Shown one piece after another: positions 1 through 63,801 of a DNA stretch of 64,000 nt. The stretch is from contig OZ361261.1 of assembly GCA_977018835.1 (NCBI GenBank), positions 1,922,001 to 1,986,000 on the forward strand. Reading direction: 5' to 3'. The notes below the pieces were generated by a model, which did not search any database, was not told the origin of the DNA, and saw nothing but the letters and a program-made list of their open reading frames with translations. Position numbers and translations under genes: made by a program. Every line of letters starts with the position of its first letter. Position 1 is the stretch's first letter. This DNA is from Minutocellus sp. GHC0000111. Lineage: Eukaryota.

Positions 1-314
1 CTAGCTAGGCCTACGTAGAACACCATACAGCTAAGGTTGCTATATAGTTTTCACTTATAATAATGTTTTTGCTTTATGTGCATGTAACGACGACACACTC
101 TATTCTGCATGTGCACCTGTCATGCATACTGTATTGTTACCTTTTCATAACACTATTATTACGTCGTATTTCAAGTCATCAAAATTGTCTACACCACGCG
201 GCCTACCGGTATTTGCATATCATAATCTCGTGGGAGAAGAGTGACGTAATACTAGAGTAGGCAGATATAGGCACTTCTGCACTTCCACCGAAAGTCGGTC
301 GGTTGCTTGGCTGG

Positions 315-815
315 TTAATCATGAATTGGCACCTCGTAACAGTACTCGTCGTTCCCGAGGATGCTCTCCATGGTTACGGACTGTATGCCCTGACGCGGCC
401 TTCGTGAATCGTCCTCCGAAGATGGCTTCACCGCGGATGATCTTCGGTGCATAAGGTGACTGCTCATCCGCCTGGTCCTGTCTAGAAATTCAACGATGCA
501 TTCGTTGATGCTTTCAACGCCAGAGAGCGCCGAGGCGAGCGAATCCAAGCTGGTCCGGCGCCTTCGTCCGCTGCCTCGGCGACTTGAACGGCGAGGGCGG
601 GAGCTCGCCGGCTGCTGCTTTGGCGCGTTTGTGGCAATCGCCTTGGCAGACAATTTTTTGACCAGTAGGCCTACATTGTCATCGTGACCTCGTTTGTTGG
701 TGGTCGAATCCTTGTCGGCCACGACGCTGGCAGTTTCAGCCGAGTCATCGCACTTGACGGGGCTGCCTGAGGGCAAGTCGACGACCACTTCATCCACGGA
801 GTAACAAGTTCCCAT
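315..815 (-). CDS. Small hypothetical Ser/Arg-rich protein, possible N-myristoylation (MGTCYS...)
   Basis: Within ORF 315..944. The ATG at 815 gives MGxCxS, a myristoylation-like start. No recognisable domain. Confidence 0.45.
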   Translation of the reverse strand: MGTCYSVDEVVVDLPSGSPVKCDDSAETASVVADKDSTTNKRGHDDNVGLLVKKLSAKAIATNAPKQQPASSRPRRSSRRGSGRRRRTSLDSLASALSGVESINECIVEFLDRTRRMSSHLMHRRSSAVKPSSEDDSRRPRQGIQSVTMESILGNDEYCYEVPIHD

Positions 816-1366
816 GATGATGGTTACACACATCAGGACAAGGATGTGGATGGAATGGGAGAAGGTGCAACGCTTGATATTTTGGGTATCTCTTGTGTTT
901 TGGGAATTCCTATTGACTGAGCGAGAGGCTCGGCATGCGGACAAAGACTGCTCACTACTTTTGGCGTGTCAACTGCTACTTCCAAATACACAAGGCGACG
1001 CACATAATATGAAAAGTGACATGCATTGGGGGGAGTAGCCTTCGACGATTTCAGATGCCGAGTCCGAGTTCCGTATGTTATCGTAGTCGGATTTGTCGTC
1101 GGTCACGCGACGGCACGGTGTCCGAAGTCAATAGCAATCTGACTCTACTTACATGTCATGTACTTAGGCCTACACTTCGCAATAGTAGATCAAGTGCTGT
1201 GCGTGGCAACTTCAACGTGCAAAGTGATAAAATAAGTCAGAATAGAGGCTGAATTCGTGCTTGCCTTCAAGCTTCAACGTGGCCTGTAGTACCGTGAGTA
1301 TCTTTCTCGCGAAAGATACCATTGCCTTGGCCGGCGCTTCTGCATCGACACTCCCAGCAGCTGAAG

Positions 1367-1955
1367 ATGTCGTCCGAGGAAGTAACTCTCAAATGCAAAT
1401 GCGGCAAGATCGAGTGCAAGTTCGACGCACCGCCCCGGCTGGTCTTCAACTGCCACTGCCACTCCTGCGTCGGAGCGATGCGAACAATTGAGGGAAAGGA
1501 GGGCTTCGACGGCATCTCCGCCGCAGTGGAAGGAGGCGTCGGTGGTGCCATCTACAAATCCAACAACGTGTCGGTCGTCAAGGCATCCTCCGATGACATT
1601 GGCTTCGTGAAGGTCGGGGAGGCGGGCCAAATTTTTTAGGCCATACTGCTCTTCTTGCGGCACCATGGTGTTCAATGTCTTCCTGAAGAACTGGGTCGCT
1701 GCGAATCGCAATGCCATCACCAAGCGTGACGGTTCTGCCTTTGTGCCCGATGGCACCATCAAGAACATCAATTGCAAGTATGCCTTTGATCCCGAAGCCA
1801 CCCCCGAGCCCAAGCATGGCACTGTCCCCCTGAGCATGCTCATGAGGTTCATGCCTATTATCATGGGTTTCGGGTGCGATGGAAGCAATTCAACTGAGGC
1901 TCTCCTGCCGGAGGATATGGACAAGGTGGAGGTTGTCCCGATCACCTGGGAATGA
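1367..1955 (+). CDS. GFA/CENP-V (Mss4-like) Zn-binding protein; 1-nt frameshift at T-run ~1632-1637
   Basis: CKCG..NCHCHSC motif. Removing one T from 'attttttagg' gives GQIFRPYCSSCGTMV, restoring the third CxxCG motif and joining ORFs 1322..1639 and 1665..1955. Confidence 0.75.
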
Positions 1956-2220
1956 TCTGCCCAGAAAGACACTATTACACATGCACTATTACACATACGT
2001 CGTATATTGACATAATTAATATAAATAGAAGAATACATGTATCGACACCATGGAATTTGGCTTCTACTAGCTGGCTAGACTACATGTAGAAAGTCTATAT
2101 GAAGATATCGTACATGCACCGTAGGATAGGAGGGGACTCGCTATATCCTGTTGTTGTCCTCGTGTGCATTTCAAAATGTTAATTCGGTCACGAAGGTGAG
2201 AGCCCTGCACGTAAGATCGG

Positions 2221-2953: not shown

Positions 2954-3028
2954 GTAGGCCTACTAGGCCTACGTACCTACTAGGCTAGGTAGCTACGTAG
3001 TAGGCTAGTACATAGGCCTACTACGTAG
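2954..3028. repeat. Stacked TA-palindrome-TA tract (putative excision-footprint array)
   Basis: ta-ggcc-ta-c-ta-ggcc-ta-cg-ta-cc-ta-c-ta-ggc-ta-gg-ta-gc-ta-cg-ta-g-ta-ggc-ta-g-ta-ca-ta-ggcc-ta-c-ta-cg-ta. Confidence 0.7.
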
Positions 3029-10265: not shown

Positions 10266-13200
10266 ATGCGCTTCATCGCGGCGGCCCTCACCGTCCTCCT
10301 CGTGGCGGAGACCGTCCAGGCGTTCGTTCCGGCCTCTCCCTCCGTGGTTTCTCTTTCCGCCTTTTCTGCCAGTTCCAGCGCCCTGTCGGCCACGTACAAG
10401 CTGGGCGAGAACGATCCCAACGACGTCAGCATCCCGTACGATGCCGCCGCCCGTCTGGCCTACGACGAGTGGACCAAATCCTACAACAAACCGTACGACG
10501 CCGCCCGGTACGAAACCTTCAAGGCCAACTACGAGGCGCTGACCGTGGCCAACGTCAAGGCCGCCAAGGCCGCCCGCGAGGCCGGCAGCGACGAACCCCC
10601 CAAGAAGTTGGACCTGAACGAGTACGCCGACATGACCGCCGAGGAGTACATGGCCATGCAGAACGGGGGGGCGGCCAGTAGTACTGGTGGTACCACCGCC
10701 CTCAAGTCGGAGTCCACTGAAGAGGAAAACAGCACGGGAGATGTGCTGGGTCAGGCCGTCGAGGCCGCCGGACTGCAGAACGATGCCAGCTCCGCGTTGG
10801 CCGAGGCGGCCGATGCTCTCGCCGAGGAGGAGGAGGTGCGTTCATTTGGCTTGACTTTGCGTGCACTTTTGAGGGATGTTGATGGGTAGAGTTGGCTTTG
10901 ATTTGGTTGGTGGGGAAAGGAAGTACATGGGCTTAGGCTGATTATGGATCAATGTGGAAGTTGGAAAAGGAGATGAAGGCAAGAAATTGAACTGCAAGGA
11001 ACGAACGAATTAGCATTGACTGCTGCATGTGACTTGTTCGTTCAGGCCTGATGGATGGGTATCCTGGATGCTCATTTGCATTTGCCGGACAATATCTGAA
11101 GATCAATTCATGAAGTGATTTGGTTGGGCCGAATCAATGCATGTTGGGATGTCGAGGTTTTCGTCATTGGCATCACTTATTTCTACTCTGCATCTCAAGC
11201 AAGTATCTGACCCATACACATCATATCATTTCCTCTTACTTCACTTCACTCCTACATCCCATCACAACAGGCTCTCGCCAAGGCCCTTGGTCTGGAGAGC
11301 GTCGAAGAGCTCGAGGTGGCCCTCGATTCCCTCGAGGGCATCGCCGAGGATGGCGGCGAGCTGGATCCCGAGAATCTGTCCCGCGAGGCCCGCGTCCGTT
11401 CCGCGTATCTGGACTGGTGCAAGGAGTTCGACAAGCAGCCCGACGAGGCCCGCTTCCCCCAATTCTCCTCCAACTACCTCGCCATGGAGGCCTACGCCAA
11501 CGAGAATGGCAAGGAGATGACATTGAACAAGTTTGCCGACTGCACCGAGGAGGAGTACGTTCAGATCACCACCGGCAAGGCTCCCGAGCCCAAGGCCGAG
11601 CCGGAGCCCGAGCCCGAGCTGGCCGCCGCTTCTGCTGCTGCTCCCGTGGAGGAGGCCAAGTTGGAAGACGGCATTGATATCAGCATTCCGTACGATGCTG
11701 CTGCCAAGTTGGCGTACGAGTCCTCGGACAAGTCCATGTCGTTTGATGACTTCAAGGTCGAGTATGAGGCCGAAGCCATTGCATTGGTCAAGTCCAAGCA
11801 GGGTGCTCCCGCCCCCGCTCCGGTGGCCAAGGCACCCGCCCCGGCCGCAAAGAAGGCTGCTCCGGTGGCCAAGAAGCCGGCCCCTGCTCCTGCTAAGAAG
11901 GAACCGGAACCCGAGGTGGATACCAAGACACGTCGGGCGCAGCAGGAGAAGGCTGCGGAGAAGCTCCGTGCGGACAACGAGGCGGCTGCTATCGCTGCTG
12001 TCAAGGCCGCTGCCGAGGCTGAGGCTGCCCAGATTGCTAAGCGACGTGCTCTCGATGAAAAGGCGGCTGAGTTGGAGAGGCAAAAGGCCGCCGAGGCAGC
12101 TGAGAAGATTGCCAAGAAGCAGGCCGAGAGAGGTTCTACTATTGTTATTCCTCGGAGGGAGCCTGTTAAGCCCACTCCGCCCCCTCCTGTTGCCGAGGAG
12201 AAGAAGCCTGCTGGAGTTTTGGGTATGTTTGCCAAGCCTGCTGCTCCCAAGGTTGCTGTCAAGAAGCCCGCTGCTCCCAAGGTTGCTGTCAAGAAGCCCG
12301 TCGCTCCTCCTCCTCCTCCCGCTGCCGCGAAGAAGGAGCCTGCTGCCGGAGGTCTGTTCGGTATGTTTGGCGGAGATGCACCCAAGCCCACTGCTAAGAA
12401 GGCCACTCCTCCTCCCAAGGCTCCTGTGAAGAAGGCTGCTCCTGCTCCTGCCCCCGCCAAGGCCGCTGCTCCCGCGCCCGCTTTCCCCTTCTTCGGAGGA
12501 GCTGCCAAGCCCGCTGCTCCCAAGAAGGCCGCCCCCACCCCTGCGCCAAAGGGTAAGTTGTATCGGTGTCGTTGATACATCTCCTTGATATCGTCGCCTT
12601 TTTTGCTTTCATATATCTAATTTTTGTATACCCCCTACCGATCGTTCTGATATTGTAGCACCAGTCAAGGCCGTGCCCAAGGTCACTTCGGAGGATCCTG
12701 TCACCGATGCATTCTCGGCTTTCTTTGGTTCCAAAGCCAAGCCTGCCGCAAAGAAGGCTACCCCTCCTCCTCCTGCTCCAGTACCTGCTCCCAAGCCGGT
12801 ATCTCAAAAGTCTGCTACATTCTCTCTGTTTGGCAACGCCGCACCGAAGAAGGCTGCTGCTCCTGCGCCTGCTCCCGCCAAGGTCGCTCCTGCTGGGCCT
12901 ACCCCAGCGCAGATTGCCGCTGAACGCAAGGCAGCCGCCGAGGCTAAGCGCCAGGAGGCTCTTGCTGCCGCCCAAGCTCGTAAGGTGGAACAGCAGCGAG
13001 TGGCCGCCGAGAGAAAGGCTGCCGCCGAGGCCAAGCGCCAGGAGGCTATCGCTAAGAGGGAGGAACAGGCCCGTATTGCTCAGGAGAAGAGAGCTGCCGC
13101 CGCCGCTGCCGCACAGGCCAAGCGCGAACAGGCTCTCGCTGCCGCAAAGGCTAGAAAGGCCGCTGCTTCTGCTCCTGCCCCCGCTCCTAAGCCCGCGCCA

Positions 13201-14136
13201 GTCAAGAAGTCGCCTACCTTCTCTCTGTTTGGCAATGCTCCTAAGCCTACTCCTCCTCCCGCTCCGGTACAGGCACCCGCCCCGGTTGCGAAAAAGCCCG
13301 CTCCATTCTCGTTCTTCGGCGCTCCAAAGCCTGCTGCCAAGGCACCCGCTCCGGCTCCTCCTGCCCTGAAGGCCCCTGTGAAGCGTTCTCCTACCATCTC
13401 GCTCTTTGGCAATGGCCCCAAGCCCGCTGCAGCAAAGCCTGCTGCTCCTGCTCAGGCCCTTCCCAAGGTCACTTCTGCCCCGAAGGGTGTGCCGACCATT
13501 GTTGGATTCCGAAAGCTCCGAGATGGAAGCGTTACTGGAAAGATCTACGGATCTCCTAGCTTTGAGGATGGCGAGCAACTCACCACCTCGCCCATAACCT
13601 CTGGAACTGTCGCTAACGGCAATCTTGTCCAGACTGGATCTGGTAGCCGGTACTTCTTGAGCGCTACCAAGCCTGGCGGTGCTGCCGCTGCCGCCAAGCC
13701 GGCTGGAGGAGGGTTCTTTGGCAAGCCCGCTGCCAAGAAGGTCGCGCCTCCTCCGGCTGCCGCCGCCAAGCCCGCTCCTGTGAAGCGATCGCCCACTATC
13801 TCTCTCTTTGGCAACGCTGCCCCGAAGAAGGCCGCTCCGGCTCCTCCGGCACCGACCCCCGCTCCCGTCAAGAAGTCCCCAACCTTCTCCCTCTTTGGAA
13901 AGCCCGCTGCCGCACCGAAGAAGAACGGCGCCGCACCGGCCGCTTCCGTTGCTGATGCCAATATTCCTGTCCTCAAAAACTGGGTTCAGAATCCGGATGG
14001 CAGCCTAACGGGCAATGTCAGCAACACCAAGTCGTTCCGTGCTGGTACTGAGATCACGACGTCTCCTGTCCGACGAGGGGCCAAGGCTGGCACTGTTGTG
14101 GCCACTAGCTCTGGCAGCAAATACAAGCTTATGTAA
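10266..14136 (+). CDS. Large plastid-targeted multi-repeat protein (I29 propeptide-inhibitor-like domains, Pro/Ala/Lys-rich linker, C-terminal beta repeats); exons ~10266-10835, 11271-12552, 12659-14136
   Basis: Signal peptide VQA-FV. GT-AG introns restore the frame (EEE|ALAK, PK|APVK). Two 'W.K..K....R...F..NY....N......LN.(Y/F)AD.T.EEY' units, two 'SIPYDAAA.LAY' units and two 'DGS.TG....F..G...TTSP......V.T.SGS.Y.L' units. Confidence 0.85.
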
Positions 14137-19121: not shown

Positions 19122-20172
19122 TCATGATGGCCACCGATGGAGATGAGGATGTAGAGATGGGAGCAGGGCATGTATAAAATTAGAAAATGAAATTACACTG
19201 CTACTACACAATGACAAATGAATTGCATGGTCCAACTTTTACAAACAGCATCGCGATTGAGCAAAAAAGCAAGTAAATTGTGCACCCAAACAAACACATC
19301 ACGTCCTTCTTAACTCACCCATTTTTATCTCCCAGACCAAAAAGTCCCTTTGTCGGGTTGATTGTTGCATAAACTTATCCCAATACTATCTGTTTCTCCT
19401 CGGGCGCAAAATTGTTGTCGGAATTCCGGGAGGTCGAGTGGGGATGCGATCGGTCGGGATGATCAGCGAGAGTCGGTCATGCGGGGGGTGCGGCGCAATC
19501 CCGGCAGTTCATCATCAACAACAACGTGGGAAAGTACCAGAGGGTCTGGGGCATCACAACGGGAGCACGACGAGCACAAAGACGGAGCAATGGCACCACC
19601 CCAGAGAAACGAACGGCCGACAGATGATGATGGTGGAGGAAAAGTGGGCCGATGGTTCGTGGCGTTGATGCGCAGCGGAGGCCAATCTGAGGATGTGCAG
19701 TGAGCTTCAACTACATCCAAACATGATATAATGAATGCGTATTTGGTACGAAAATATAGTTATACGCCGGCGCAACGCCGACGGACCACCATGGTGTTGG
19801 ACGGTCAAAGAATGGGTGACGAACGAGATTGGGTTTTGGTGGGTTTCTTCGTGACGTGTTCGTCTTCTGCCGAAAAACGCTTCATCCGAAACAAGACGAG
19901 ATGGTGGGGCTGTGTGATCAAGCAAGATGCGATAAAATCTGTCCGTCAACCGGACACAACCGATCTGTCCTTCAACCGGAACCACCACAGACTCAGTACG
20001 AGTAGGTCATACGAGGTCAGATTCGCGAGAAATCGAGCGCCCGGTTTTTGACTGCTTTCGAGGGGATTGAAAAGCGCCTCGAAGAATAGTCATGCTGAAA
20101 TATTTAAGAAAATGGCTATTTTTACTCTAATTTTGATTTATCTTCATGTGAAACAATAATTCGGATATAAGT

Positions 20173-20620
20173 TTAGATTTCAGCGGCTGTAATCAAATGG
20201 TTCGTGCGACGCGACGGTTCGGCCTCCATCTCGTCTTCATCTTGAACGATGGCATGATGCTCGCCTCGGATCGGCAGTACGATGCATTCGTCCCGGATCT
20301 CGCACCACAGCCAATCCGGGATGAGTTTGAGCTTCTTTAGCTCCCGCTTCACGCCGTTGAACTTGTAGATGAAGGTAACTGAGGAGTGGAACATCTCCGC
20401 GGCCTTGTCGTACACCGATTCAGTTATTGCCACGACATCATCCATGTCGAGGGGCATGTTCTCGGCCCTTATCGCCCGGCAGACGAGTCGACTGACGACA
20501 TTGAGGAGCATGTGCTTCTCAAAATCCTCGGGCCCGTCAATCTTGAGAGTTTTCTCCTGGTCAATGATGATGGCCAAGACAGCGGTGAGCATGTGTTCAA
20601 TCCATTTGTGTCGGGCGGAA
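20173..20620 (-). CDS. Unknown helical protein fragment on the antisense strand inside element 1
   Basis: Part of ORF 20173..20790. KWIEHMLTAVLAIIIDQEK...FIYKFNGVKRELKKLKLIPDWLWCEIRDE has natural protein-like composition and ends near the left TIR. Confidence 0.4.
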
Positions 20621-22111
20621 GTCGAAGCTGAGCATTTCGATGACGCGATCGGCATACTTGGACCGGTATACTGCTTCCCAACGAGTGCCGATGATTCATC
20701 TGATTCGGCCGCCTTCCGTTCTGTCATCGACGATCTTGCAACGGCGACCCGGCGGCATACTGCACCATGTCTCTTTGCAATAATTGCCAAGTGCAGGGAG
20801 CAGGCAAAGGTGGACTATTCGGTGCTGTCCAGCGCAGAGCATGGTGCACGATTTTCGGGATGGATGAAGGCGTATGGTGCTCTACCTGCATCTGAGAAGG
20901 CGATGTGGGAGATGAAGAGGAGATCTCATCTGGCTATGCAGCCACACATTCGAGATGTTATTGTTGATGCTCTGATACGAAATCCTCGGGAATCTTGGCG
21001 GGAGCTGGAGGTTGATGTCAACTTTTGGTGTTCCTACTCGGCAATACGGCGGTGGATAATGTCGCGGGAGGGGTTCCGGTACTATGCCGAAAGGATCATC
21101 CCTCTCCTTACTACCCATCAGATGGAGAAACATTTGGTATTTGCGCGGAAATTCCGAAACAATTGGGGGCTCGGCGGTGGCAAGTTTCTCCTTATTATGT
21201 TCGATGAGAAGTGGTTTTGGGGCTTGGTTCTTCGATCGTATGCCAAGCAAGTTGCAGAATTGGGTATTGATCCTCGGTCCTTCTCGGCATATCACCGAAA
21301 TCACATCAACAAGTGCATGGTGGTGGCTGTCACTGCCTTGGCTTTTATTGACAGCATTGAGAATGGCGGCATTGCGTTCAAGCTTGGACGTTTTCGGGCT
21401 CAGGCGCATAAAATTGCGAGGCAGATGGTAAGGGAGGCGGTGCGGCAGGCAGATGGTAGAATCAAATATTGCGGCCCGGTGGTTCGGAAGAAAGACGATC
21501 TATACCTTGTGGATTGCGCGGTGACTGGATGCAGCCATGGCACCCTTGATAATCCCAAGTTCCCACTGAAAGCTTTATTTGAGAACAAGATGTTTCCGGA
21601 TGTTGAGGCTTTGGTCGGACCTGGTGGAAAGTTTGAAGGCTATGTCCCTATTTTTCAGGGCGACAATGCTGGGCCCCATGCCGAGACTGAATTTGTGGAA
21701 TATGTGGAAGGATACTGTCGGGACAAGGGATGGCGTTGGGAACCTCAGGCCCCGCAAATGCCCCATATGAATGTTCTTGATCTGTCTGTTTTCCCTTGCA
21801 TGTCAAAGCGGCATACAATGTTGAGCCGCGATCGGGAGGGGCTGAAGGTTTTGACAGAAGATCAGACTTGGGATGCAGCGGAGGAAGTTTGGATGGGGCT
21901 GGAAAACTGGAAGATCGCATCGGCATACATCCAGGCTCATAGAATTGCAAAGAAGGTAATCGTTGCAAAAGGCAACAATGATTTTCTTGGAAACGGTGAA
22001 GGCATTCATGTTGGGGTGCGAACGGATTTCAGGCCGACTGAAAATGGCATGGTTCGGATAGATGGGAAAATTATCGCTCCTCCTCCTGCTGATCCAACCA
22101 TGGATAATTAG
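20369..22111 (+). CDS. Mariner-like transposase, DD38D, with HMG-box-like and HTH-like N-terminal regions (true start uncertain)
   Basis: FDEKWF / FQGDNAGPH / QAPQMPHMNVLDLSVF correspond to the DEKWF / QQDNA.PH / QPPNSPDLNVLDLGFF blocks of plant-type mariners. 38 residues lie between the 2nd and 3rd Asp. Confidence 0.9.
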   Translation: MKVTEEWNISAALSYTDSVIATTSSMSRGMFSALIARQTSRLTTLRSMCFSKSSGPSILRVFSWSMMMAKTAVSMCSIHLCRAEVEAEHFDDAIGILGPVYCFPTSADDSSDSAAFRSVIDDLATATRRHTAPCLFAIIAKCREQAKVDYSVLSSAEHGARFSGWMKAYGALPASEKAMWEMKRRSHLAMQPHIRDVIVDALIRNPRESWRELEVDVNFWCSYSAIRRWIMSREGFRYYAERIIPLLTTHQMEKHLVFARKFRNNWGLGGGKFLLIMFDEKWFWGLVLRSYAKQVAELGIDPRSFSAYHRNHINKCMVVAVTALAFIDSIENGGIAFKLGRFRAQAHKIARQMVREAVRQADGRIKYCGPVVRKKDDLYLVDCAVTGCSHGTLDNPKFPLKALFENKMFPDVEALVGPGGKFEGYVPIFQGDNAGPHAETEFVEYVEGYCRDKGWRWEPQAPQMPHMNVLDLSVFPCMSKRHTMLSRDREGLKVLTEDQTWDAAEEVWMGLENWKIASAYIQAHRIAKKVIVAKGNNDFLGNGEGIHVGVRTDFRPTENGMVRIDGKIIAPPPADPTMDN

Positions 22112-22356
22112 TCCTGCGGTGCTTTTAAGTTATGTTATGTTTAAAATAATACTAGATTATTTAGATTCGAGCTATATTTGTGCTACTACACACACATGCC
22201 GTACATGCATGTGTAGTGCTCTCTTGTCAGTTTTGATGGTTCCGGCTTTACATGCATGTGTCCGTGTCCGGGTTGCGGACCCAAAAATCGACATTTTTTG
22301 GTCCCGGCCCTGCGCTCGATTTCTCGCGAAACGGACTTGTAGGATTCCTATGAACA

Positions 22357-23420
22357 ATGACGAACGAAATCCCAACTACAATGAAGCGGCTGGTCGTCAA
22401 GGAACCAGGGGAAAATGTTGAGACATGCAAAATCGAGGTCGAATCGGTGCCCGTTCCTGAGCCCCGAAGTGGTGAGCTGCTGATCAAGGTGGTAGCGGCA
22501 CCCATCAACCCCTCTGACTATGTCGAATGGTACAAATCGAACCCATCCAAGTATCCACTGCCAATGGGCAAGGAGGGTTGTGGCATTATCGTCAAAAGAG
22601 GCGGTGGCTTGGCGACGTACCGCTTTTCCGTCGGTTCATGCGTTGGCTTTATCGGCCTAAAAGGAAAGCAGGGTTCGTATTCCGAGTACATTACGATTGC
22701 CGCCACCGGGTGCTTTACAATGCCCGATGATGTTCCAATTGAAGACTGTGCATCCTTTTTTATCAACCCATACACTGCCATTGGTATTATTGACACAGCC
22801 AAGAATAAGGAGGGTAGCTCTGCATTCGTCCATACCGCTGCGGCCAGTCAATTGGGACAGATGATTGTGAAGCTAGCCCCACAAGAAGATGTTACGGTGA
22901 TCAATGTCGTGAGGAGAGACGAGCAGGCCGATATATTGAAGCAGCTCGGTGCGGAGCATATCGTCGTCACGGGCTCCAGTACAAATGACGAAGACGTTGC
23001 CAAGTGGAAGGAGGAACTAAAGTCCAAAATCAAGGAGTTGGGTGCAACCTGTGCGTTTGATGCCGTATCAGGACGCATGACTGGCGACCTTCTTGATTGT
23101 GTGCCCCCCAAGGGACCGCATTTACATATGGTGGTCTGGCTGGTTTAGCAGGCAATATCGACCCATCCGATCTGATATATCGCGAGAAGAAGCTGAAAGG
23201 ATTCTTCTTGACGAGCTGGATCCAAGACGGGGGGATGATTAGTATGGTGCCTCGTATGCTCAAGGCATCAAGCAAGGTGAATGCCGGATTGAAAGGACCA
23301 GATGGCTGGAGCAGTACACAATTCGAAGACACAACTCTGGAGAAGGCGCATGATTCCATCGTGGGCTTGCTGGGGAGCAGCATCACTGGGAAAAAGCTTC
23401 GCATTAGGTTTGACCAGTAG
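22357..23420 (+). CDS. MDR-family NAD(P)-dependent oxidoreductase (quinone/enoyl-reductase-like); frameshift ~23112
   Basis: ELLIKVVAAPINPSD, PMGKEGCG, FFINPYTA, VHTAAASQLG, AFDAVSG. A one-base addition joins to GTAFTYGGL...LKGFFLTSW. Confidence 0.88.
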
Positions 23421-23585
23421 ATCTAGCTACGTAGCTAGCTGGAGCTGCGTGCAGCCTAGGAATTCTAATATCTTGAGGCATGACAATTTTTAATCTTATG
23501 TTCGTACAACGAATACGTAGACAAATTATCACATAGCGCCCCTTCAAATTAGCTTTTCCTCTTGGGGTGTTTCGTACAAGTAACC

Positions 23586-27567: not shown

Positions 27568-28169
27568 TGTATTGTATTATTTAGCGTGCGTCGTGGGGGT
27601 TGGACGTGGTCAGCTGGGAGCGGACACGCAACACTGAGATGATCCGGAGCGTCAATTGATAAAGCGATGCCGGTCGCAATAGAATGTGCAAATGGACGTG
27701 ATCAGCAGCGATAGAGCAGGCTACAGGTGGCAGCAGCAAACAGTAAACCGCCGCATTCATCGCGGCCATCGTTGCGTTTCTCTCATCGAGATCCGACGAC
27801 GAAAAGACCAGTTCTTTCGTCCGTCCTTCCGTCGCCCTCGCGATCGCCTCATCATCAGTCATCGCATCTGCTGCTACTAGCTAGGCCTAGCTAGCTAGAA
27901 GTAGCTACGTAGCTAGGCTATCTATCTCGAGCTCGCGAGAGCCGCGATTTTCTTTCCCACACCGAGTGGGCGCCATTATCAGCGCGCTCTCCGAGGGCAC
28001 TTCGTGATTGCTACGAAGTGGTGAGAAGGACAACAGCAGACTGGCACCGACTGACTGACTGACTGTGATGCTGTGACACATGTGTGTGTGTGTGTGCGCG
28101 CACGAGAGTCGCACGCAGAGAGTCAAGATCATCTACTACGTAGCTAGCAGACTAGATCTACACATGTAA

Positions 28170-29040: not shown

Positions 29041-29044
29041 CTCC

Positions 29045-30523: not shown

Positions 30524-31038
30524 TTATTATGCTTCCCAGATAAACTTCCGGCGGTGATGGGTCGGTAACGGGCCGGAAGGTTGCCACAAAAACAATAAAG
30601 ACAAGGCACAACACAGAACACAAAAAGTATATGTAGAGGGGACGTGGAACTGGATTTAACAGAGCATGGGCGAAGGTATTTGATTGTGGTGGAAGTTGAA
30701 TGAAGTTCCCGGGCGCTACAGTGTGTAGTACGAGAGGATACGTTTCCCACCGCCACGGCAATAACAACCACAGAGCGCTTTTTGCTTTTCAAAACTGAAA
30801 TTTTCAGCTGCACGTGCAAGAAGAGCATGCCCAACGGAAACTGGCAGCTCTCAGGATCTGACGAATAATGACGCAAGAGAAAGTAGCAAGTCATTACAAT
30901 TGGCTCTGCAGATGCGCAGAAACAATCAATGTGCACGGCCGGAGATCGAGACGGCCTACACTACATGTATGATGCTCTGTCAAGCTAGCCTCTCTAGCTT
31001 TACATACAACATTCGTATGAAATATTCTTTAACAAAAA

Positions 31039-31152
31039 CTACCGTAGCTACATCAGATCCATTTACATGTAGATCTAGATCTAGTCACTGGAACACATCC
31101 ATCATGTGTCGTCAAAAAGTTTGCTAGATCTAGATCTAGCTAGATCTAGCTA
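31039..31152. repeat. Stacked TA-palindrome-TA tract (putative excision-footprint array)
   Basis: ta-catg-ta-gatc-ta-gatc-ta and ta-gatc-ta-gatc-ta-gc-ta-gatc-ta-gc-ta. Confidence 0.7.
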
Positions 31153-33399: not shown

Positions 33400-33678
33400 T
33401 TTGTTGCTTCATCGTTGCAAACTGACTTGCTTGGCACGGCCGATCCCACGAGCAAGGGAGTTTCGATCGAAGTTGGCGGCAGCAGCAGCTGGATGGCGAA
33501 TACGAGATTGTATACGTACGTTGATGTCGCGTCTGAAGCTACGTACGTACAGTATACTTACAGAACGTACGTACTTGGCTCTACTCTTTCAGGCAGATTT
33601 ATTGGCGGGTCTTGACACCCCTTCAGCAGAGGCGAGCTCACCAAAGATCGCAAGGCGTTTATCTTGAAATCCGCCAGC

Positions 33679-35023
33679 ATGAAACTTCGCTGTCTCATTC
33701 TTCTTCCAGCCATCAGTCTTCTTGATGCGCCGAAATCATCAGCCTTCATTTCCCTTCCTGCGACCCGTCCTCGGGCATCAACGACTCCTCTCTACAGCAC
33801 TCAAAGTGAAAAAGAGGCCAAAGATATCGACGAAAATGCAATCTTTGCCGATGCAGATGCCACGGTCAAGAAGCTGTCCGATGAGCAGCAGGACCGAGAG
33901 GTTCGATCGCTCGTCGCCGAAGACGAGTGGAGCGGCCTTGCGATGGAGATGACGCGTGTAATCGGCAAGGCCATCATCGAAGATGCCAAAAAGAAGAAAG
34001 TCAAGCTCAAGACCAAGACCGACACATTTATGGGCACCGATGACTACACCACGTCTGATGTGTTGAATGCGTTGGATCAGAAGGTCAAAAGCGAAGTAGC
34101 CAATCTTCGCGGCAAAGAAGAGTGTGAGTAAATACATACATGTAGATGTAGCCTGTATTTTGTATTACGGTATGGTCACAATATATGTTGTTCTTGCTTT
34201 TACGAATTGATCATCCAACATTCAACATCCTTGTATCTATTGAATCTATTTTGTCTCCACTTTTCTACCTACAGACGAGATCGGCGACCTCGCTTTGGCT
34301 CTTGATGAAATCTCAAAGGATCTGGCCTGCAAGGTCATTGGCAAGGATGGCGTATACGAATTTGGAGATCTTTCTCGCGAAGTCGACAGCAGGATCAAGA
34401 ATGTCGTCGCTGGTTATTGTGGAAAGGATACATACGAATGTAAGCTGTGTCGATGTAGAGTTTAGTGCACTTCTATTGCGTCTTTCATAATACAGATCAC
34501 TCATCCTTTATCCTACTTTTTAATTTTAACCGCAAAATCACAGTTGGAGATCTCTCAGCTGAAGTAAAAAAGCGAACCAAGGCCCGCGTACTTAATTTCA
34601 CTGGCAAAGATGAGTGGCACTTTGGAGACATTGCCAGGGAGGTGAACAACAGACGTCAAGAATGGGCCAAGGACTATCTTGGAGAGGAAGTATGGGAAAA
34701 CTACGAGAGCGGAGATTTCACCAAGAAGGTTCTGAGCGACCTTAAGGCTCTCAAGAATGACTACAGCGTTGGAGATGGTAAGTGCCGGCCTTAGCTTAAT
34801 GTATTTTGATGAATTAATTTTTGCGTTTGATTGCGCAACTCTATCGTTCATCCTCACGGTGCTACTTATTGTTTTCTCCTGGGGGTTTCCGCATCCAGCT
34901 TCGAAAGATGCAGCGAAGAAGGTCGTTAAGAAGGCGGCCAAGGCAGCCAAAAATAAGCTCATGTCAAAGATGAAGGGTGCCTTTGGAAGTACCTCCGATC
35001 CTTCTCCTTCAGCAGAAAAATGA
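33679..35023 (+). CDS. Plastid-targeted protein with repeated 'Y(E)xGD(L/I)' helical units; exons 33679-34123, 34275-34439, 34544-34777, 34899-35023
   Basis: Signal + SSA-FI. The spliced product has KEEYEIGDL, VYEFGDL, TYEFGDL, WHFGDI, YESGDF, YSVGDA. Confidence 0.75.
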
Positions 35024-35772
35024 TGCACTACACACAAGGAGAGATTGATATGATGGGCGGTGAGAGAAATAAAGCGAACTACATTTACAACAAGAAGAAC
35101 CAAATGAATAATGATATCACCCGATCCCCAACCAACCACCAAAGTCAAGAGAATCAACAACAGAATCTAGGAAAAGCGATTAATTTGCCACGACGAATCG
35201 AATCAATCAACCTGGATATAGATCTTGGAGCTGTACCAGGTTATTATACATGTATATATTGATCTAGATCTAGCTCTGCTGTAGCTAGCTAGGCACAAAT
35301 AAAAGAATAGATGTGCAAACAAGCAGCCTGTACATGTAAAATATTGATAGTCAGGACGTAAGTGATGCACAATGACCATCGGGACGGGGGGCGTCTAGCT
35401 AGGAATTCCTATTTGACTGACTTACATGAATGCACCGGTACATGTACTACCTTTCCCGGTAGACCAGAGTTTATAGGCCTACTTACATACCGGTAAATCT
35501 ACATGTATCAATTCTACATGTACACGCGCGCTCTCCTCAATCCTTCGGCCTCGCCGCCTTTTCGCGACTTCCTCGTCTTGCTTCGTTCGCGCTCTCGCGC
35601 ACACGTTCGCTCCGTCCGCCGTCGCGTCGCATCGCTCGCATCGCATCGCGCGGGCGCGCTTTCGACATTCGTCATTGGCCTTTGTCATTTATTTTGAAGG
35701 CAGACAGCTTGCAAGCTGCTGTCTGCTGCTAACCTGCTGATTACCGTTATTGTTGTCTCTTGTCAGATTCAA

Positions 35773-36492: not shown

Positions 36493-36592
36493 ATCTTTCT
36501 TTCGTAATGGTAAGCATTATATCATACCTGACAATAAACAAAAACTATTATTAATGATGAATATGATATTGGATCCTACGCCTAGCAGAGAT

Positions 36593-40972: not shown

Positions 40973-41725
40973 AAAATATAAAAGGACAGCATTGCTGGGA
41001 ACTGTTCTATCTAGCTAGAAGCTTAGTCCCTTGGAGATTTGCTGCTGTAGTTGACTTGCTGATGATTTAGACCTACCTACATACGGGAAGCTTCCGGTGT
41101 GTAGTAGTACCTGGCAAGCAACTGAACTCTCCTCCGCGTTCGGTACGAGGTCGCGGACAGCAGTTTCAGGGACCCGGTTTTCGGGTCTTTGGGCAAAATC
41201 TCATAAAAATCAGCACAAACGCACGCAGCAAGCAGCATTTATTTGCCATCGTCCTGTCTTCAAGATGGCGGTGACGGCAGTGCCGATGGCATCCGCTTCA
41301 CGCAAGGGACAAGCGTGGTGTCTCCAGAACGGGTTGGTCCTTGACCTTGGACCGACTCGGAGACATCGATTTCATCTTCCCATGCCAGCGTCTGGCCGAT
41401 TCACCCCATCCATCGCCCCTCCCGACTTCTGCCAGTTTTTCCGATGACAACCGGTCACCTCCTCCACCTCCCGACCCCACCACCACCTCCCAAATGCATT
41501 GATTCAAGTAGCCATGTGGTTTGAGCTCCGACATCGGTCTCCATGGTCCCCACAATGGCGCATCTTATGCGGTCCGGGTGACCCCGCGCCAAAATCGAGC
41601 GGGCCAAAAAAATCATCACCCGCCCGGCGCGCCCTCCACTCAATGAAACCTTCCTCATTTCCAACCCACCCGACATACAAACTGTTGCTCTACTGCCACA
41701 AAATACTGCATCCAACACCATATTA

Positions 41726-43361
41726 ATGCAAATGGCTGTTGCTGCTGCTGCCACCGCAGCTGATGCGCCAGCATGTCGCCGCTCCCGTCGGTCCGGCAGC
41801 TCCATCCCATGCTTTGATTATTTTGTCCATCGGAGCGGCACCATCGATGCCTCTACGATTCGTGGCAAGTCTCCTGGGATGATCCAGACCATAGCGAACC
41901 GGGCATGGGCGGGCCTCTCACTTCAGAAACAGCAGGATGTCATGGAGCAAGCCCGAGAGGAGGAGCTGTGCTGTCCGAGCCAGACCGGTCCTGATCCGGC
42001 ACAAGATGTGCCGATTTCTCAAATTCAAATTGCTCGGCGCAATTCGTCATCCAACATCGCCGATGCCAGCCCTGAGCCGACGGTCGAGGACAATGCTGGT
42101 GTCGCTGCTCGTCCTGGTGATGATGACATCGAAGCTGGGGGCATCGCCGAGTCCATGGTGGTGGATGGAAGCGGCAACAGTGAAGAATCTGGCAATCCTG
42201 CCAGTGTCGGTGTTTCTGCTACCGGCACCGCCAATTCTGGTGGATCGACCGAGGAGAATTTGGATGTGCTGCTGGTTGAGGCCGAAGCGCAATGCAAAGC
42301 TGCAGAGGAGGCTTTGAAAGGGCTAAGGGACACCTTGAAACGAGAAAAGCGGAAGGATGAAAAGGCCATGGCCGATGCCGAGAAGAAAAGGAACAAAATG
42401 AAGGATGAGAACGGCAATTTACCGAATGCGAGTTCTCCTCGTGCATTGCGATGAGAAATGGTTCTGGGGTCTCGTCCTCCGAGCTTTTGCGAAGGCTTGC
42501 GAGGAAATCGGCGTGAAAAAGCGAGATTACGCGGCCTTTCACAGGAGCCACATCAACAAGGTCATGGCCATTGCATTTGTTGCCGCTGTCTTTGACGGTT
42601 CTCTTGAGAGTGGGTGCGAGGTTGTAAAACTGCCACTGGTACGAGCTCAAGCTCCTAAAATAGCGGAGCGAGCTCAGCACGAAGCAGTGTCACAGCCTGA
42701 TGGTTCAACACGGCACCCAAATACCAACCCCGATGGGACACCAAAGGAACCTCTTCGCCGGAAAGGAGAGTCGTTTCTTGTTGATTGTTGCGTTACTGGA
42801 TCGAACGAAGGCACCAAAAAGGATCCGAAATGCTCTTTGCTCCTCGTATTCAAGGAGACTATTTTCCCAGCGATTCTCAACCTTGTCGGTCCGGGCAAGC
42901 AATACGAAGATTGCCATGTTATTATCCAGGGCGACCAGGCCGGGCCTCACGAGGACGGAACCTTCACGCAATTTGTTACTAACTTCTGTGCTGAGCAAGG
43001 CTGGACGTGGCAGCCACAGGCACCGCAGATGCCTCACGCCAACGTCCTTGACTTGAGCGTGTTCCCCGCGATGAGCCGGCGGCACTCGGAATGGGCACGA
43101 AAAATGGTAGGCACCTCCGTCATTTCCACCGACCAGATCTGGGACACTGCCGAGGACGTTTACGATAGCATGCCTAACTGCAAAATTGCTTCGGCCTTCA
43201 TTCAGTACTGGAGGATAATGGGCCTGGTGATTAAGGCCGGTGGTAGCAATGAGTTTGTTGGAAGGTTGGGTGACGAAAACTTGCACACTGGAATTAGGAT
43301 CGACTTCAACGAAACGGCCAAGGGGATGGAGCCCTCAGCTCGTCATCCTTCTAATAAATAG
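41726..43361 (+). pseudogene. Mariner-like DD38D transposase, frameshifted or internally deleted at ~42420
   Basis: ORF 41726..42454 (HMG-box-like segment + coiled coil) overlaps ORF 42405..43361 (CDEKWF, QGDQAGPH, QAPQMPHANVLDLSVF). The HTH/linker region present in element 1 is missing. Confidence 0.85.
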
Positions 43362-43456
43362 ATAGTGTTAATGTCTTTACACATGTATTAAATAAATGTT
43401 ACACGTCTACAAATTATTTATAGATCTACATGTAAGATGCAGCAGCATTGGTTTGT

Positions 43457-44590
43457 TTATGTCACGGTGGGCTTCTTTGTTCTTCTATTTCTACCGGTAT
43501 TCTTTTTTGCCTCCTTGGCCTTCTTATGATCATTAGAAAGCCACACAGCGTGGAGGGACTGACGAATCTTTCCGCGCTTCACACCATATGCATCGGCAAG
43601 TTTATTGTCAGTGAGGTCAGGGTGAGCAGTTGGTTGTTTACTCCCATCCTCATATCCCAACTTATATGCATCTAATGCAATCTTGTCAGTAGATAATGCA
43701 ATAGAGAATTCTATTGTCTTGTTATCATACAATCCGAGTTCTCTGCTTCTCCACCCTTTCGGGTAGGCACCACGACCCTCTCTTACTTGGCGATCGACTT
43801 CGATCATGCCTAGCACTGTGGTGACCGCGACCTCGCTACCCCAACCAGGAACTTGTTTGAAGGGGAGGTAGACCCCTTTCTCTTTTCTTCTTGGTTCGGG
43901 CCTCTGACTACATGTGGGTGACTTGTAGTTCTTTATATCTTGTGGTAGTGGTGCTTCTCCGTACGTCAAAAAGCACGCAAGCCTCCGATGTTCCTCAACC
44001 TCTCGTTCAATCTGTCGTTCGGTTGGTTCGGTTGGAGGCAAGGGCTCCAAGATGGTAGGGGATGACAATTGAAGGTTGCTGAACGACGGGCATGAGCGGC
44101 TTGGGGTAAGAGCATACTGAGTATGAACTGACATTGGACTTGTTACCATGGGCGTGGCGGAGGGAAGGTCGAATGAGCTCACGGGCTTTCTCCTCTCGCC
44201 GCTTGGCTTTGCGTCGGCGGTTGCTATGCTCATCTCTGAGAATGAATCATCTTCATCAGAATGAGATGAAACGGTAGCGGTACCGCGAAAGTCGGCACGC
44301 AATATGTCATGATGCAAGTACTTCCTTGCTTGGGCTTGTTCGGCGGCGAAGCCATCCTCTTCGTTGTACTCGCGTCGATATTTCAACACACGAGGAGATG
44401 TGAGGTCTGACGATGCCGGTGGGACCCCTTGGTTGTCCTCCTCGTCATCGTTGTCCTTGTTCTCTCGATACCGCGGATGTTCCGGCGGAACGGAAGTTTC
44501 CTTCTCATGGCGCGAGGGGCTGAATGCAGTCGCCTCGGCGCATTTCGGTGGACGCGGTGGACTGAAGATGTGTCCCTTTGGAGTATCCAT
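43457..44590 (-). CDS. Unknown cargo/accessory protein inside element 2 (~377 aa; disordered N-half, folded C-half, basic NLS-like tail)
   Basis: Uninterrupted ORF from MDTPKG, lying entirely between the TIRs and convergent with the transposase. Confidence 0.7.
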   Translation of the reverse strand: MDTPKGHIFSPPRPPKCAEATAFSPSRHEKETSVPPEHPRYRENKDNDDEEDNQGVPPASSDLTSPRVLKYRREYNEEDGFAAEQAQARKYLHHDILRADFRGTATVSSHSDEDDSFSEMSIATADAKPSGERRKPVSSFDLPSATPMVTSPMSVHTQYALTPSRSCPSFSNLQLSSPTILEPLPPTEPTERQIEREVEEHRRLACFLTYGEAPLPQDIKNYKSPTCSQRPEPRRKEKGVYLPFKQVPGWGSEVAVTTVLGMIEVDRQVREGRGAYPKGWRSRELGLYDNKTIEFSIALSTDKIALDAYKLGYEDGSKQPTAHPDLTDNKLADAYGVKRGKIRQSLHAVWLSNDHKKAKEAKKNTGRNRRTKKPTVT

Positions 44591-44828
44591 GAGTATGGAA
44601 GCTTCTTGAAGCGCCAGTCGGCAGAAGTTGCCCAGTCTATTTGTGGTAATTGCTTGGAGGTCGGTTGTTGACGGATTTGTTTTGTTTTGCTTGCTTTGCC
44701 ACGTGTTTTTCAAGGTGGGCGCAAACCGCCGTGTCGGAAAGTCCAAAGACCCAAAAAACCGGGTCCCCGAAATTGCTGTCCCGGACCTCGTAGGAGACAC
44801 CCGGAGGATGTGATGACCTCGCCAAAAG

Positions 44829-44854
44829 TACGAGCTCGTACATGTAGGAATTCC
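44829..44854. repeat. Footprint array TA-CGAGCTCG-TA-CATG-TA-GGAATTCC
   Basis: The first unit equals the first 4 and last 4 nt of element 2 joined between two TAs. Confidence 0.75.
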
Positions 44855-47438: not shown

Positions 47439-47898
47439 GTTGGATCTGTTTGCTTTGTGATTGACTGCCTTGGAGATGTTCTGATTTATGATTTGATCGC
47501 ATTCGTTGGCTGTTTTGGTTGGAGGAGTGTTGATGGATGGATCTTGACACCAGAAGCTGGAGGACGCGATGACGATGCGCCAATCTTTTCCATGACCCCG
47601 AGTTTTTTGCATAGGAGACACAAGCTCAGCGGCCTCTCGGCCGAATCGCCCAGCGCGTGCTGCTTGCTGCTGTCGATTGCCGCAAAGGGGCGAGATATCT
47701 TGGTACCTGCAGCCCATGCAGCTATATGTAAGTTAGCTACAGCAAGCACTACAAGCAGACGCTCTGTATATCATTCATTTACTGGTATGTAGGAATTCCT
47801 ATCAGCTGGTCAGTCAGAGTCGAGCCTTCCTGCATGCAACCAATTCTCTCCTGCTTCCCTTTTTCCATTCTTCATTGATGATAAAAATCCTTGCTTCT

Positions 47899-48771: not shown

Positions 48772-48932
48772 TGTTGTCGCAGTGTGATGACGAGTGACGC
48801 TTGAAGATATCAGGTTATGAGTCAATAGCACTCTTTGACTGTCATCTTCAACTGGCTATGGCGCCTACCTAGGTACGCTTTGGCGTCTTGTTGGCCGCAG
48901 TGCTTTCTCCTCTGCAAGCAAATCAGGCAAAA

Positions 48933-52945: not shown

Positions 52946-53730
52946 CTGACTGGCTGACTGAGTGACGGATCTAGCTACGTAGCTACGTAGCTGCAAACAC
53001 AAAAAAATACACACCAATTTTACAATTGTAAATGCGACAAATAATGCTGTCTGTTTGGCTTCATGTAGATCGAGCTACATGTACATGTAGATCTACGTAC
53101 CGATAGCTCTAACTAGAGCATGCCGGGACAGGAGCTGCTGGATGTCTGGTCCGTTGAGTCGAGGAGCCCACCGACACCTGCAGGCGGCGAAGCAGCATTG
53201 AGGCACACACACAGAGGCGTGTGAGGATCGAGCAGGCCAGGCGATTCTCGGCGGAGCTGGTCGTCACGGTGTTTCTGGTGCCGGTGACCACTTTCCACAA
53301 CAAACATGTACCTGTATTTTTGGCCTCTCTTTCCCTCCTTTATGGCCTCTTTATTATTTACATGTATGTACAGGACCCTGAGACGGTACCTAGGTAGGCC
53401 TACAGCATGTAGGCCAGGATTGATTCCACCCCCCGTCTCTTGAACTTTCTTTTTTTGTGTTCGGGATCAAGATTCTGACCCCTATCGGCGCGGCCTTGCT
53501 TTCCTCGCAGTCTTGTTCTCGTCGAACGCGCGGCACCCCACAACACGGTGACTGCCCACAACCCCACAAGCCACGAGAATTCCCAGCGTCTAGGTCCTAG
53601 CTAGCTAGAAGCTACGTAGTACCGGTAGTGCCTGGTCGCGGTGAACAGATCAACCGATCGATTGCCCCCAGCCCAGACAAGCTTGAAAATGCATACGAGT
53701 AGTACCGTCTTGCAGGGCAGGAAGAAGCTG

Positions 53731-58681: not shown

Positions 58682-58825
58682 TTGCGTGCTTGTTAATTCG
58701 ATGTACCGTAGAGTGTAATATAAATAAAGACTACGTGGTTTCCTATCTTTCTTTTCCATATTCGTTCATCCATACACATACGAGTAGCAACTCTATCAAA
58801 ACTCAGTCAACTGACTATTCCTTTC

Positions 58826-62188: not shown

Positions 62189-62703
62189 TTTGATTTCTTT
62201 CTCGTGTCTTGCAAGAAGTTACCGTTGAAATTCAAGGGACTCTTCGCCCCAAATCGGCACAAATGCGATGCAGATTGATGTGATAGATTGGGTTTGGTGG
62301 TGCGGTGGAGGGATATCGATGGAATTTGGGACCGGAAGGCAACGTATCCCGGTCGTATCCTGGGGACGGCACAAGATGTGTTGGTGCGTTGGTTTTTGAC
62401 TGTTTGTGTTTTGAGTGAGTTTGGAATTGAGGGGCAGGAGATCTCCCTGAATTTAAACCGAACAACAACCAGGAGTCAGTTGAGAGCGGCAACCACCGAA
62501 CATCATGGAGAGATACTCCACAGCGCATCCATGAGGATATGCGGAATCGAACGATGAAGGCAGCACATCAGAATAGTCGGCTTTCTTGCCGCCCCGTATT
62601 TCGCATTTGCACCTCAAATATCACCACCCTCTCGATCGATCTCTCAGTTTGTTCTTCTCACCACATCAAGCAATATTAGACTCTACTTAGATTTACTTTT
62701 TAC

Positions 62704-63522
62704 TTAGACGATATAATACTTTGTCCCGTGGATGAGCGTGTGTGGTAGGCTCTCTTGTTTTGGAGGGGCTGCCACCTTGGACTTCTTTTTGGCGGGAGAA
62801 TGAGATTCGCCAATGCTGCTGCTGCTGTCATTATTCTCGGCAGCACTTCTCTTCCCATTCGGCGATACAAGAGGAGACGTCTTTACCGCGGCACCATCCT
62901 GTTGCGCATTCAGTGGATCAGTAGAAGTACCCGCTGATTCCTTTTGACTTGAAGCTGCGGTGGATTCTTCAGTACCGGTACCGACTGTCTTGCTACCTGC
63001 ATGCGCACTTGGATCAATCGTCGGATGAGATACCGGCGTCGGTGCATCGCCCACCCACTTTAGTTCGCCCTTGCCGGTCCAGTAGACCAGATCGAACCAC
63101 CTCACATCTCCATCATCAAAGGTCACCTGGTGCGTCGCTTTGAGCTTTATGGTGCCATTAGTACTGCTCTCGTCGGACTTGCTCTTGGCACCCCGCCTCC
63201 CTCCGCGCTTTCCACCGCCTCCAGCACCGGCGTTGGCTTTGGCATTGGCCGGCTCCAATTGCACAGCGGTTATGGTCCCCTCGTACCACTGATGGGCCAT
63301 CGGCTCGTCGTCCTTGCCAGTGTCAACATCAAACAAAACCTGAACGCGGCGGTTCAGCACCTCCTCTTTGAATATCAGGCCATTGGCACCGCTGGCATTC
63401 GTGGTGTTTTTGCCGTTGGTGGTGGCCGCTTGTTCGTCCTCCTCGGGATCGGCCTTGATGGCCGCGGCGCCACTGCTTGAGGAGCTCTCGCGACGCTTTC
63501 TCCCGGAGGGTGGTTTTGCCAT
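62704..63522 (-). CDS. Nuclear protein with Tudor/chromo-barrel-like domain (may continue in a further exon)
   Basis: LNRRVQVLF...WYEGTITAV...HQVTFDDGDVRWFDL. Basic NLS-like patches. Confidence 0.65.
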   Translation of the reverse strand: MAKPPSGRKRRESSSSSGAAAIKADPEEDEQAATTNGKNTTNASGANGLIFKEEVLNRRVQVLFDVDTGKDDEPMAHQWYEGTITAVQLEPANAKANAGAGGGGKRGGRRGAKSKSDESSTNGTIKLKATHQVTFDDGDVRWFDLVYWTGKGELKWVGDAPTPVSHPTIDPSAHAGSKTVGTGTEESTAASSQKESAGTSTDPLNAQQDGAAVKTSPLVSPNGKRSAAENNDSSSSIGESHSPAKKKSKVAAPPKQESLPHTLIHGTKYYIV

Positions 63523-63801
63523 CTTTGCTGGTGGGAATTCCTACTCTAGCCAACAATGCTGCTGCGAGAACAGATGAGCAAGTCAATACTAGCTAGTACC
63601 GCGAAAAAACGATGGCATCAGTGAATTCGCCAGCGGCCAGCGGCCAGCGCATTGCGTAGAGGGGCAGGGACTCTCCCTGGATTCAAACCATAGAACCGCG
63701 ATGATCTGCGATCTGACTTGTGAAACAGAACCCGAAGTTGCAAAGAAGCGACGGCGGTGAATCAGCCATAAATTCTAAGTAATACAATACAATTGACGAC
63801 C

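Follow-up and report, generated by a model that had tools for sequence, protein, structure and literature searches.

The 64,000-nucleotide stretch of Minutocellus sp. GHC0000111 analysed here (contig OZ361261.1, positions 1,922,001 to 1,986,000; hereafter the window) carries, mostly in its non-coding DNA, short palindromic words that stand between successive TA dinucleotides and are stacked on shared TAs. What can have written such words? We consider it probable that these TA-word-TA units are excision scars of TA-targeting cut-and-paste transposons of the Tc1/mariner type, left where repair kept both overhangs, and that further elements re-inserted on the TAs of the scars. The case differs from word to word: it is firm for CGAG, good for CATG, GATC, GGAATTCC, GGCC and CCGG, and weakest for GC and CG.

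Scars of this kind could be produced in a few steps. Insertion of an element would duplicate TA, and its excision would leave 3′ overhangs with 2-4 terminal bases of the element on both flanks. Joining of both overhangs would then make a palindrome, namely CA+TG, GA+TC, CC+GG, CGAG+CTCG or GGAA+TTCC, while trimming at the join would give centre-shortened forms. A scar bounded by C/G would offer two TAs in the most-used flank context, and together with open-chromatin hot spots or local hopping this might build stacks, to which slippage may later add further copies, above all of CTAG and GATCTA. Such a scheme calls for no fewer than three to five families, though not for a separate one behind every word.

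The window consists of gene-dense eukaryotic DNA with a G+C content of 53%, in which helicase-associated-domain and DUF6824 genes and spliced GT..AG introns are present. Those relatives of its signal peptidase subunit that carry a name come from diatoms, led by Odontella aurita (78%), and the host is a diatom.

Words between TAs and their stacking

Counted against an order-3 Markov model of the whole window, TACATGTA occurs 15 times where 0.60 is expected, TAGATCTA 10 times (0.25), TAGGCCTA 9 times (0.18), TAGCTA 25 times (4.5), TACGTA 19 times (4.3) and TAGGAATTCCTA twice (<0.01). As a rough proxy for coding sequence, open reading frames (ORFs) of at least 120 amino acids from ATG were masked, and the remaining 15,140 bases were compared with 100 dinucleotide shuffles. 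In this non-ORF set, GC (21 versus 2.8 in the shuffles) and CG (14 versus 1.9) are the two-base spacers in excess between successive TAs, and CATG (13 versus 0.2), GATC (10 versus 0.2) and GGCC (7 versus 0.1) those of four bases, which makes a 7- to 65-fold excess for the five. Rarer spacers are CCGG (2 versus 0.1), GGAATTCC (2 versus 0.01) and CGAG (2 versus 0.2). Four of the 11 TA-free palindromic 4-mers are enriched, and the other seven stay at 0-1 counts. Taken together, the excess amounts to some 64 words in 15 kb, or one per about 240 bases, and 71 of 86 core words lie outside the ORFs. One-base C/G spacers (22 versus 19.8) and Sleeping Beauty-type CAG/CTG spacers (2 versus 1.1) are not enriched over the shuffles of the same set. 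Thus, the spacer list of the original prediction, which was made from the sequence of this window, stands for GC, CG, CATG, GATC and GGCC, with GGAATTCC seen twice, while C/G and CAG/CTG remain at shuffle level. All of the 17 tracts that it listed, and its site at 33548, are where it placed them. Its statement that the tracts parse cleanly is true of short tracts only: core words take up 62-80% of the sequence in four short tracts, but 22-58% in twelve further ones and 0% in 48865-48877.

The same vocabulary is found in metagenome loci. Metagenomes were scanned for GGAATTCC beside a four-base S-AT-S word, which gave at least 121 loci. For word counts, 51 loci were used (G+C 44-60%, length at least 1.5 kb, duplicates dropped, queried match masked; 63,823 non-ORF bases), and in these the identical four palindromic 4-mers are enriched and the remaining seven are not. 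Among the matches listed, the neighbour of GGAATTCC is palindromic in 95 cases versus 4 non-palindromic in loci of at least 44% G+C, and in 13 versus 14, which is chance-like, in loci below 44%. In 596 billion bases of prokaryote genomes the scan pattern has 32 matches, a number regarded as chance level, and viral contigs gave 0 matches to an 18-base stack. Longer metagenome loci have a tetranucleotide profile like that of the window (up to 0.81), and locus L181 comes from a diatom, as judged by protein homology. Stacks of GGAATTCC and CATG also occur at 40-42% G+C (L152 and L176, both TACAGTA-rich) and at 63-66% G+C (L129, L149, L157, L192, L200), possibly in other eukaryote groups. L166 near 3144 and L206 near 151 contain longer perfect palindromes between TAs (CAG...CTG, 6+6 bases), possibly longer scars.

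It is to be noted that the words do not lie independently of each other. Core words meet on a shared TA at 28 junctions, compared with 6.1 when the spacer order is shuffled across segments and 15.3 when it is shuffled within them, and none of 2,000 shuffles of spacer order attained 28. Different words are joined at 22 of the 28 junctions and identical ones at 6, where 5.4 are expected. The claim that words are stacked on TAs is therefore borne out beyond chance, mostly with an unlike neighbour. When words are collapsed, 40 of 686 TA sites have been used, 27 of them once, 6 twice, 3 three times and 4 four times, whereas a Poisson distribution predicts 58, 2.7, 0.08 and 0.0. Use also varies with the context of the TA: 9 of 40 CTAG sites are used versus 3 of 118 ATAA/TTAT sites.

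Resident transposons and their ends

Two mariner-type elements, named E1 and E2, reside in the window.

20012..22339, + strand: E1, a 2,328-bp mariner-type transposon between TA 20010-20011 and TA 22340-22341
20369..22111, + strand: transposase frame of E1, with a D-D-38-D triad and a Tc3-type helix-turn-helix (HTH)
41146..44790, + strand: E2, a 3,645-bp mariner-type transposon with TA on both sides and ends CGAG..CTCG
42402..43361, + strand: catalytic part of the E2 transposase, 96% to P0043

The TA-duplicating family with CGAG..CTCG ends that the words had led one to expect is thus present in the window, in the form of two elements with TA flanks, CGAG ends and DD38D transposases. E1 starts with CGAG on its left, reads CTTG on its right, one mismatch to CTCG, and has inverted arms at 20016-20040 and 22312-22336, while the inverted repeats of E2 are about 47 bp long (88%). 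The transposase of E1 is frameshifted near 20610 relative to its cluster representative P0002, to which its identity is 98%; the protein clusters have 146 members for E1 and 22 for E2, and the two transposases are 47% identical. P0043 scores above and P0002 below the curated cut-off of Pfam HTH_Tnp_Tc3_2. The three aspartates were identified by motif, and of the 95 homologues in which the motif was found (121 proteins examined), 92 have a spacing of 38 from the second aspartate to the third. E1 and E2 have the Tc1/mariner traits of TA target duplication, terminal inverted repeats (TIRs; imperfect at the right end of E1) and a DDD/E transposase with HTH. P0002 has no sequence match in PDB, and viral contigs hold no relative of the transposase. 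P0002-P0121 make up a widespread DD38D transposase clade whose named matches are from Cylindrotheca closterium only, and which is without a Pfam catalytic-domain match.

Contigs over E1 reach a summed depth about 100-fold that of its flanks, a rough indication that the element has many copies. Just left of its TA, at 19630-20009, summed depth is at least that of E1, which suggests that another repeat of high copy number adjoins the E1 site, and immediately to its right lies a zinc alcohol dehydrogenase gene that is apparently split (frames 22354-23148 and 23097-23420). Within E2, about 1.4 kb behind the transposase (43457-44790) hold an antisense frame of about 490 amino acids without a Pfam match. 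A 263-base duplicate (17980-18242 and 40510-40776, 95% identity) has one copy upstream of each transposon.

For E1 an empty site is available. The strain comparison used contigs, not raw reads, of the independent runs X1, X2 and X5, and all three join 20009 to 22340 with a single TA remaining (shorter side 92 letters, intervening letters possible). The alternative allele is the pre-insertion single TA, and this TA opens the word TA-GGATTCC-TA. In keeping with the proposed re-insertion on old scars, E1 occupies the TA of an older word.

How do the words compare with element ends? The CGAGCTCG word at 44829 equals the 4+4 bases of the E2 ends (TA-CGAG-CTCG-TA). L181 has TA, exactly four end bases, 32 bases matching the E2 inverted repeat at about 90%, and TA again. 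From its sequence, this may be an excision site with the overhang alone on one side, the other side having been partly rebuilt from a template, as after aborted gap repair; the four-base side would be consistent with a 4-base stagger cut by the transposase. Two further TA-flanked elements are in metagenome loci. The element of L142 has inverted repeats, is 1,394 bp long and ends in GA..TC; its right TA begins a stack of GATC and GGAATTCC, and its five end bases recur as a spacer (13 versus 0.8). L143 contains a 1,122-bp element with CA..TG ends. A relaxed TIR search of the window returned only E2. Other candidates were rejected: the inverted repeat of L145, considered as a GG..CC element, continues past the TAs; the repeat common to L147, L158, L167 and L196 has its TA internal in three of four cases and was not counted; and AT-rich TIR calls (L133, L152 and others) were low-complexity noise. 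The original idea that each word stands for a separate family goes beyond these matches: the CGAG words match E1 and E2, GA..TC and CA..TG ends are those of L142 and L143, GGAA, GG, CC and GC ends are unmatched in the window and the loci listed, and GGCC may be a trimmed GGAA..TTCC scar and CG a trimmed CGAG..CTCG scar.

The shortened forms of the longer words were counted in the window together with 81 loci. Seven-base forms of GGAATTCC are shortened at the centre in 10 cases versus 1 lateral, and 6-7-base forms of CGAGCTCG in 11 versus 1. In L155, three tandem copies have at one TA no word, GGAATTCC, or GGAATTCC and CATG, and neither word is copied from adjacent DNA. States of 0, 1 and 2 words at one TA, as unit-wise gain should give, are thus seen in a related locus.

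Tract positions and other explanations

The tracts and single words of the window are as follows; gene positions around them come from a rough codon-score annotation.

1..18: stack of GC, GGCC, CG
2064..2089: loose tract with one CATG word
2954..3028: long tract, core words in 7 of 17 spacers; upstream of a + strand gene
19997..20004: TA-CGAG-TA, 5 bases from the E1 insertion site; putative one-sided 4-base scar
22340..22350: TA-GGATTCC-TA, a centre-trimmed form of GGAATTCC; its first TA is the E1 target site
23417..23467: stack of GATC, GC, CG, GC; between converging gene ends
27874..27925: tract, core words in 7 of 11 spacers; upstream of the signal peptidase subunit gene
28133..28168: tract of CG, GC, GATC
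31039..31152: two stacks (CATG, GATC, GATC; and GATC, GATC, GC, GATC, GC)
33513..33575: four CG words and one CAG spacer (33548); between diverging genes
34137..34144: CATG word within the RNA-supported intron 34124-34274
35245..35292: tract of CATG, GATC, GC, GC; behind a gene 3′ end
35396..35522: tract with GC, GGAATTCC, three CATG, GGCC, CCGG; upstream of a NUDIX gene
43420..43434: stack of GATC, CATG; inside E2, downstream of its transposase
44829..44854: stack of CGAGCTCG, CATG, GGAATTCC, the last word without a closing TA; 36 bases right of E2
47789..47802: lone GGAATTCC word
48865..48877: CC and GG spacers, without a core word
52968..53110: two stacks (GC, CG, GC, CG; and CATG, CATG, GATC, CG); behind a gene stop codon
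53358..53412: tract including CATG and GGCC
53590..53628: tract of GGTCC, GC, GC, CG, CCGG; upstream of a DUF6824 gene
63588..63599: single GC word; upstream of a gene

Tracts lie upstream of genes (2954, 27874, 35396, 53590, 63588), and also at 3′ ends or between converging genes (23417, 35245, 52968), inside E2 (43420) and in an intron (34137). Such placement is at odds with a pure promoter code, and is compatible with later regulatory use. Elsewhere in the window, 11211-14136 encodes a long repetitive protein rich in Ala, Pro and Lys that is spread over two frames. At 35508-35522, contigs of X5 run out of the window in both directions and overlap by 15 bases, the pattern expected of a retroposon-like insertion with a long target duplication. 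Half-depth joints in X1 and X2 skip 27840-29083 and 30142-30993 (the second in X5 too); their sides are about 30 letters, and they possibly come from divergent haplotypes. Joints between tracts with 24-letter sides belong to other loci and were not used.

Several observations weigh against excision as the source of the words. Elements with GGAA, GG, CC or GC ends were found neither in the window nor in the 121 metagenome loci listed, and those of L142 and L143 have no transposase match. An element-versus-scar allele pair at one site was not seen, nor was an excision allele in this species. One-sided GA/TC forms show no excess (5 versus 5.2), the CACG spacer (27 versus 2.4) is without explanation, and among 5-base forms in the window and 81 loci there are lateral ones too (GGAAT 6, CGAGC 3). 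Word counts in the metagenome loci are biased by the choice of loci for GGAATTCC beside CATG or GATC, and same-word junctions are in slight excess there (26 versus 18.9, p 0.039). The states of L155 are not polarised in direction and could be losses between TAs. A simulation with a one-base context preference, fitted on the same data, raises the number of junctions from 5.5 to 11.4, compared with 24 by the stricter count; therefore, new TAs in a favoured context account for only part of the stacking, and the self-amplifying landing pads of the original prediction would cover no more than that part. Scars of worms and vertebrates are usually one-sided (three bases for Sleeping Beauty; PMC12632400, PMC6943129), whereas those proposed here are two-sided, as dense as one per about 240 non-coding bases, and stacked.

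Differences among strains also belong to these points. At 31070, where GATCTA is present in two copies versus one, a 6-base unit is absent in X1 and in one X5 allele, and this is a perfect tandem duplication. Among 12 of the 83 indels for 30900-36500, it is the one in a listed tract, and neighbouring X1/X5 indels near tracts (CATC, GCA, GATA) are tandem-type as well. In nine allele-like metagenome pairs, 0 of 14 gaps is a clean new word plus TA, most being tandem-type and one complex; L204 and L219 differ by an 8-base CTAG-repeat indel, again of tandem type. Full tandem duplications make up 14 of 24 GC words and 5 of 10 GATC words. For the unit-wise gain that a comparison of haplotypes or strains had been expected to show, L155 offers the states in a related locus, while among the 12 indels listed this species itself has only the tandem-type one at 31070 in a listed tract. 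Slippage is real in the tracts, as a modifier. Longer words are seldom tandem copies (CATG 2 of 15, GGCC 0 of 8, CCGG 1 of 5, GGAATTCC 0 of 2).

Could local replication errors then have made the words, slippage and short template switching building palindromic repeats from CTAG or GTAC seeds with no transposon at all? The duplicated GC and GATC words and the tandem-type indels of 31070 and of L204/L219 speak for it, as does the fact that GC and CG are neighbours about twice as often as word frequencies predict. Against it, seven palindromic 4-mers show no enrichment, the same words of eight bases turn up again at unlinked places and in other organisms, and the palindromes mostly end at TAs or one base beyond. 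CG and GATC favour a CTAG flank as GC does, though with no duplication for them, and the words of L155 are missing from adjacent DNA. We regard such an origin as rather unlikely; replication errors are likely a real contributor, not the source. A further possibility is that breaks at TA sites were repaired by hairpin opening or snap-back synthesis, which would copy the flank into palindromes. Ac/Ds footprints are indeed palindromes of flanking DNA (PMC4561436), and a strong C/G flank bias could let a few words dominate, but here the same words occur in different flanks, and the GGAATTCC of L155 is absent from its flank; this route seems very improbable to us.

Another idea is that the words are clustered binding sites of dimeric transcription factors, kept by selection near genes. 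Several tracts are upstream of genes; TACATGTA is abundant upstream of Phytophthora genes, where it has been interpreted as a binding site, not a footprint (PMC3520976), and a MYB protein binds it (PMC11134190). Opposed to this are the tracts at 3′ or converging ends, in the intron and inside the transposon, and the arrangement of all words in one TA frame, overlapping on TAs. The centre-trimmed series and the extended scar match a transposon end, and in a contig of the diverged relative X13, 454 unrelated letters replace 35217-35774. As an account of where the words come from, binding sites are unlikely, although an origin as scars and later use as binding sites are compatible. An assembly or library artefact, suggested only by the look of the words, which resemble restriction-site palindromes, is hardly credible. 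Runs that stem from two to three studies show the same tracts in their contigs, the same vocabulary is in unrelated metagenome assemblies, and the words are mostly confined to non-coding DNA. Against the possibility, raised earlier, that the tracts would be missing from raw reads stand the X1, X2 and X5 contigs, which cross 31039-31152 and 35245-35522 with few differences.

Implications and comparison with known systems

If the words are excision scars, a wider proposal may be put forward tentatively. It is possible that in a group of marine diatoms tens of thousands of past cut-and-paste events are preserved as two-sided palindromic scars of several mariner-type families, including an unseen GGAA-ended one, with scars as preferred targets. 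Much of the 'promoter motif' vocabulary, perhaps including the oomycete TACATGTA, might then have been written by excision and could be adopted by transcription factors later. Were this true, intergenic words would count past activity of DNA transposons far beyond the surviving copies, they would name the end letters and the cut stagger of families that are perhaps extinct, and they would show how the lineage repairs breaks, namely with both overhangs kept. Motif searches in diatoms would have to treat the words as possible scars, and an abundant promoter motif of stramenopiles might have a transposon origin.

Published work already covers excision footprints and re-insertion beside them, and the basic mechanism is textbook knowledge. 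In the literature covered, which lacks most subscription journals, we found no account of such tracts in diatoms, of such density or of two-end retention, and nothing on end joining in diatoms.

Excision of Tc1/mariner elements is described as leaving 3′ overhangs, with the first or last 2-4 bases of the element as the footprint (PMC6943129), and the footprints of Tc1 and Sleeping Beauty likewise have TA on both sides of 2-4 terminal element bases. The somatic footprint of Tc1 is usually one-sided, TATGTA or TACATA in 78% of events (PMC12632400). TACATGTA, in which CATG keeps bases from both sides, has been recorded as a Tc1 footprint and is termed rare (PMC3520976); it had been called the classic Tc1 footprint in the original prediction, and in these two sources it is not the commonest. 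In Triticeae, Stowaway/Osmar5 elements left end fragments of 1-4 bases beside each TA, and a new element was inserted at the TA of an older footprint (PMC1925063). Stowaway/Osmar5 (PlantMar, DD39D) is a case of one locus across species and one family, whereas the present case, in a diatom, spans many sites and several types of end, with a DD38D transposase. A 39-residue spacing is the definition of PlantMar (PMC7325037), and with a spacing of 38 in 92 of 95 homologues, E1 and E2 are not PlantMar by that feature. Neighbouring units of a microsatellite or slippage repeat copy one another, whereas here only 6 of 28 junctions are same-word, which is chance level, and part of the GC and GATC words are copy-like. 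The promoter motif of Phytophthora consists of the same eight letters, TACATGTA, and is abundant in the non-coding DNA of a stramenopile (PMC3520976). There it is bound by PsMyb37 (PMC11134190), while here it is one of several words in the TA frame and shares stacks with words matching the end of a transposon.

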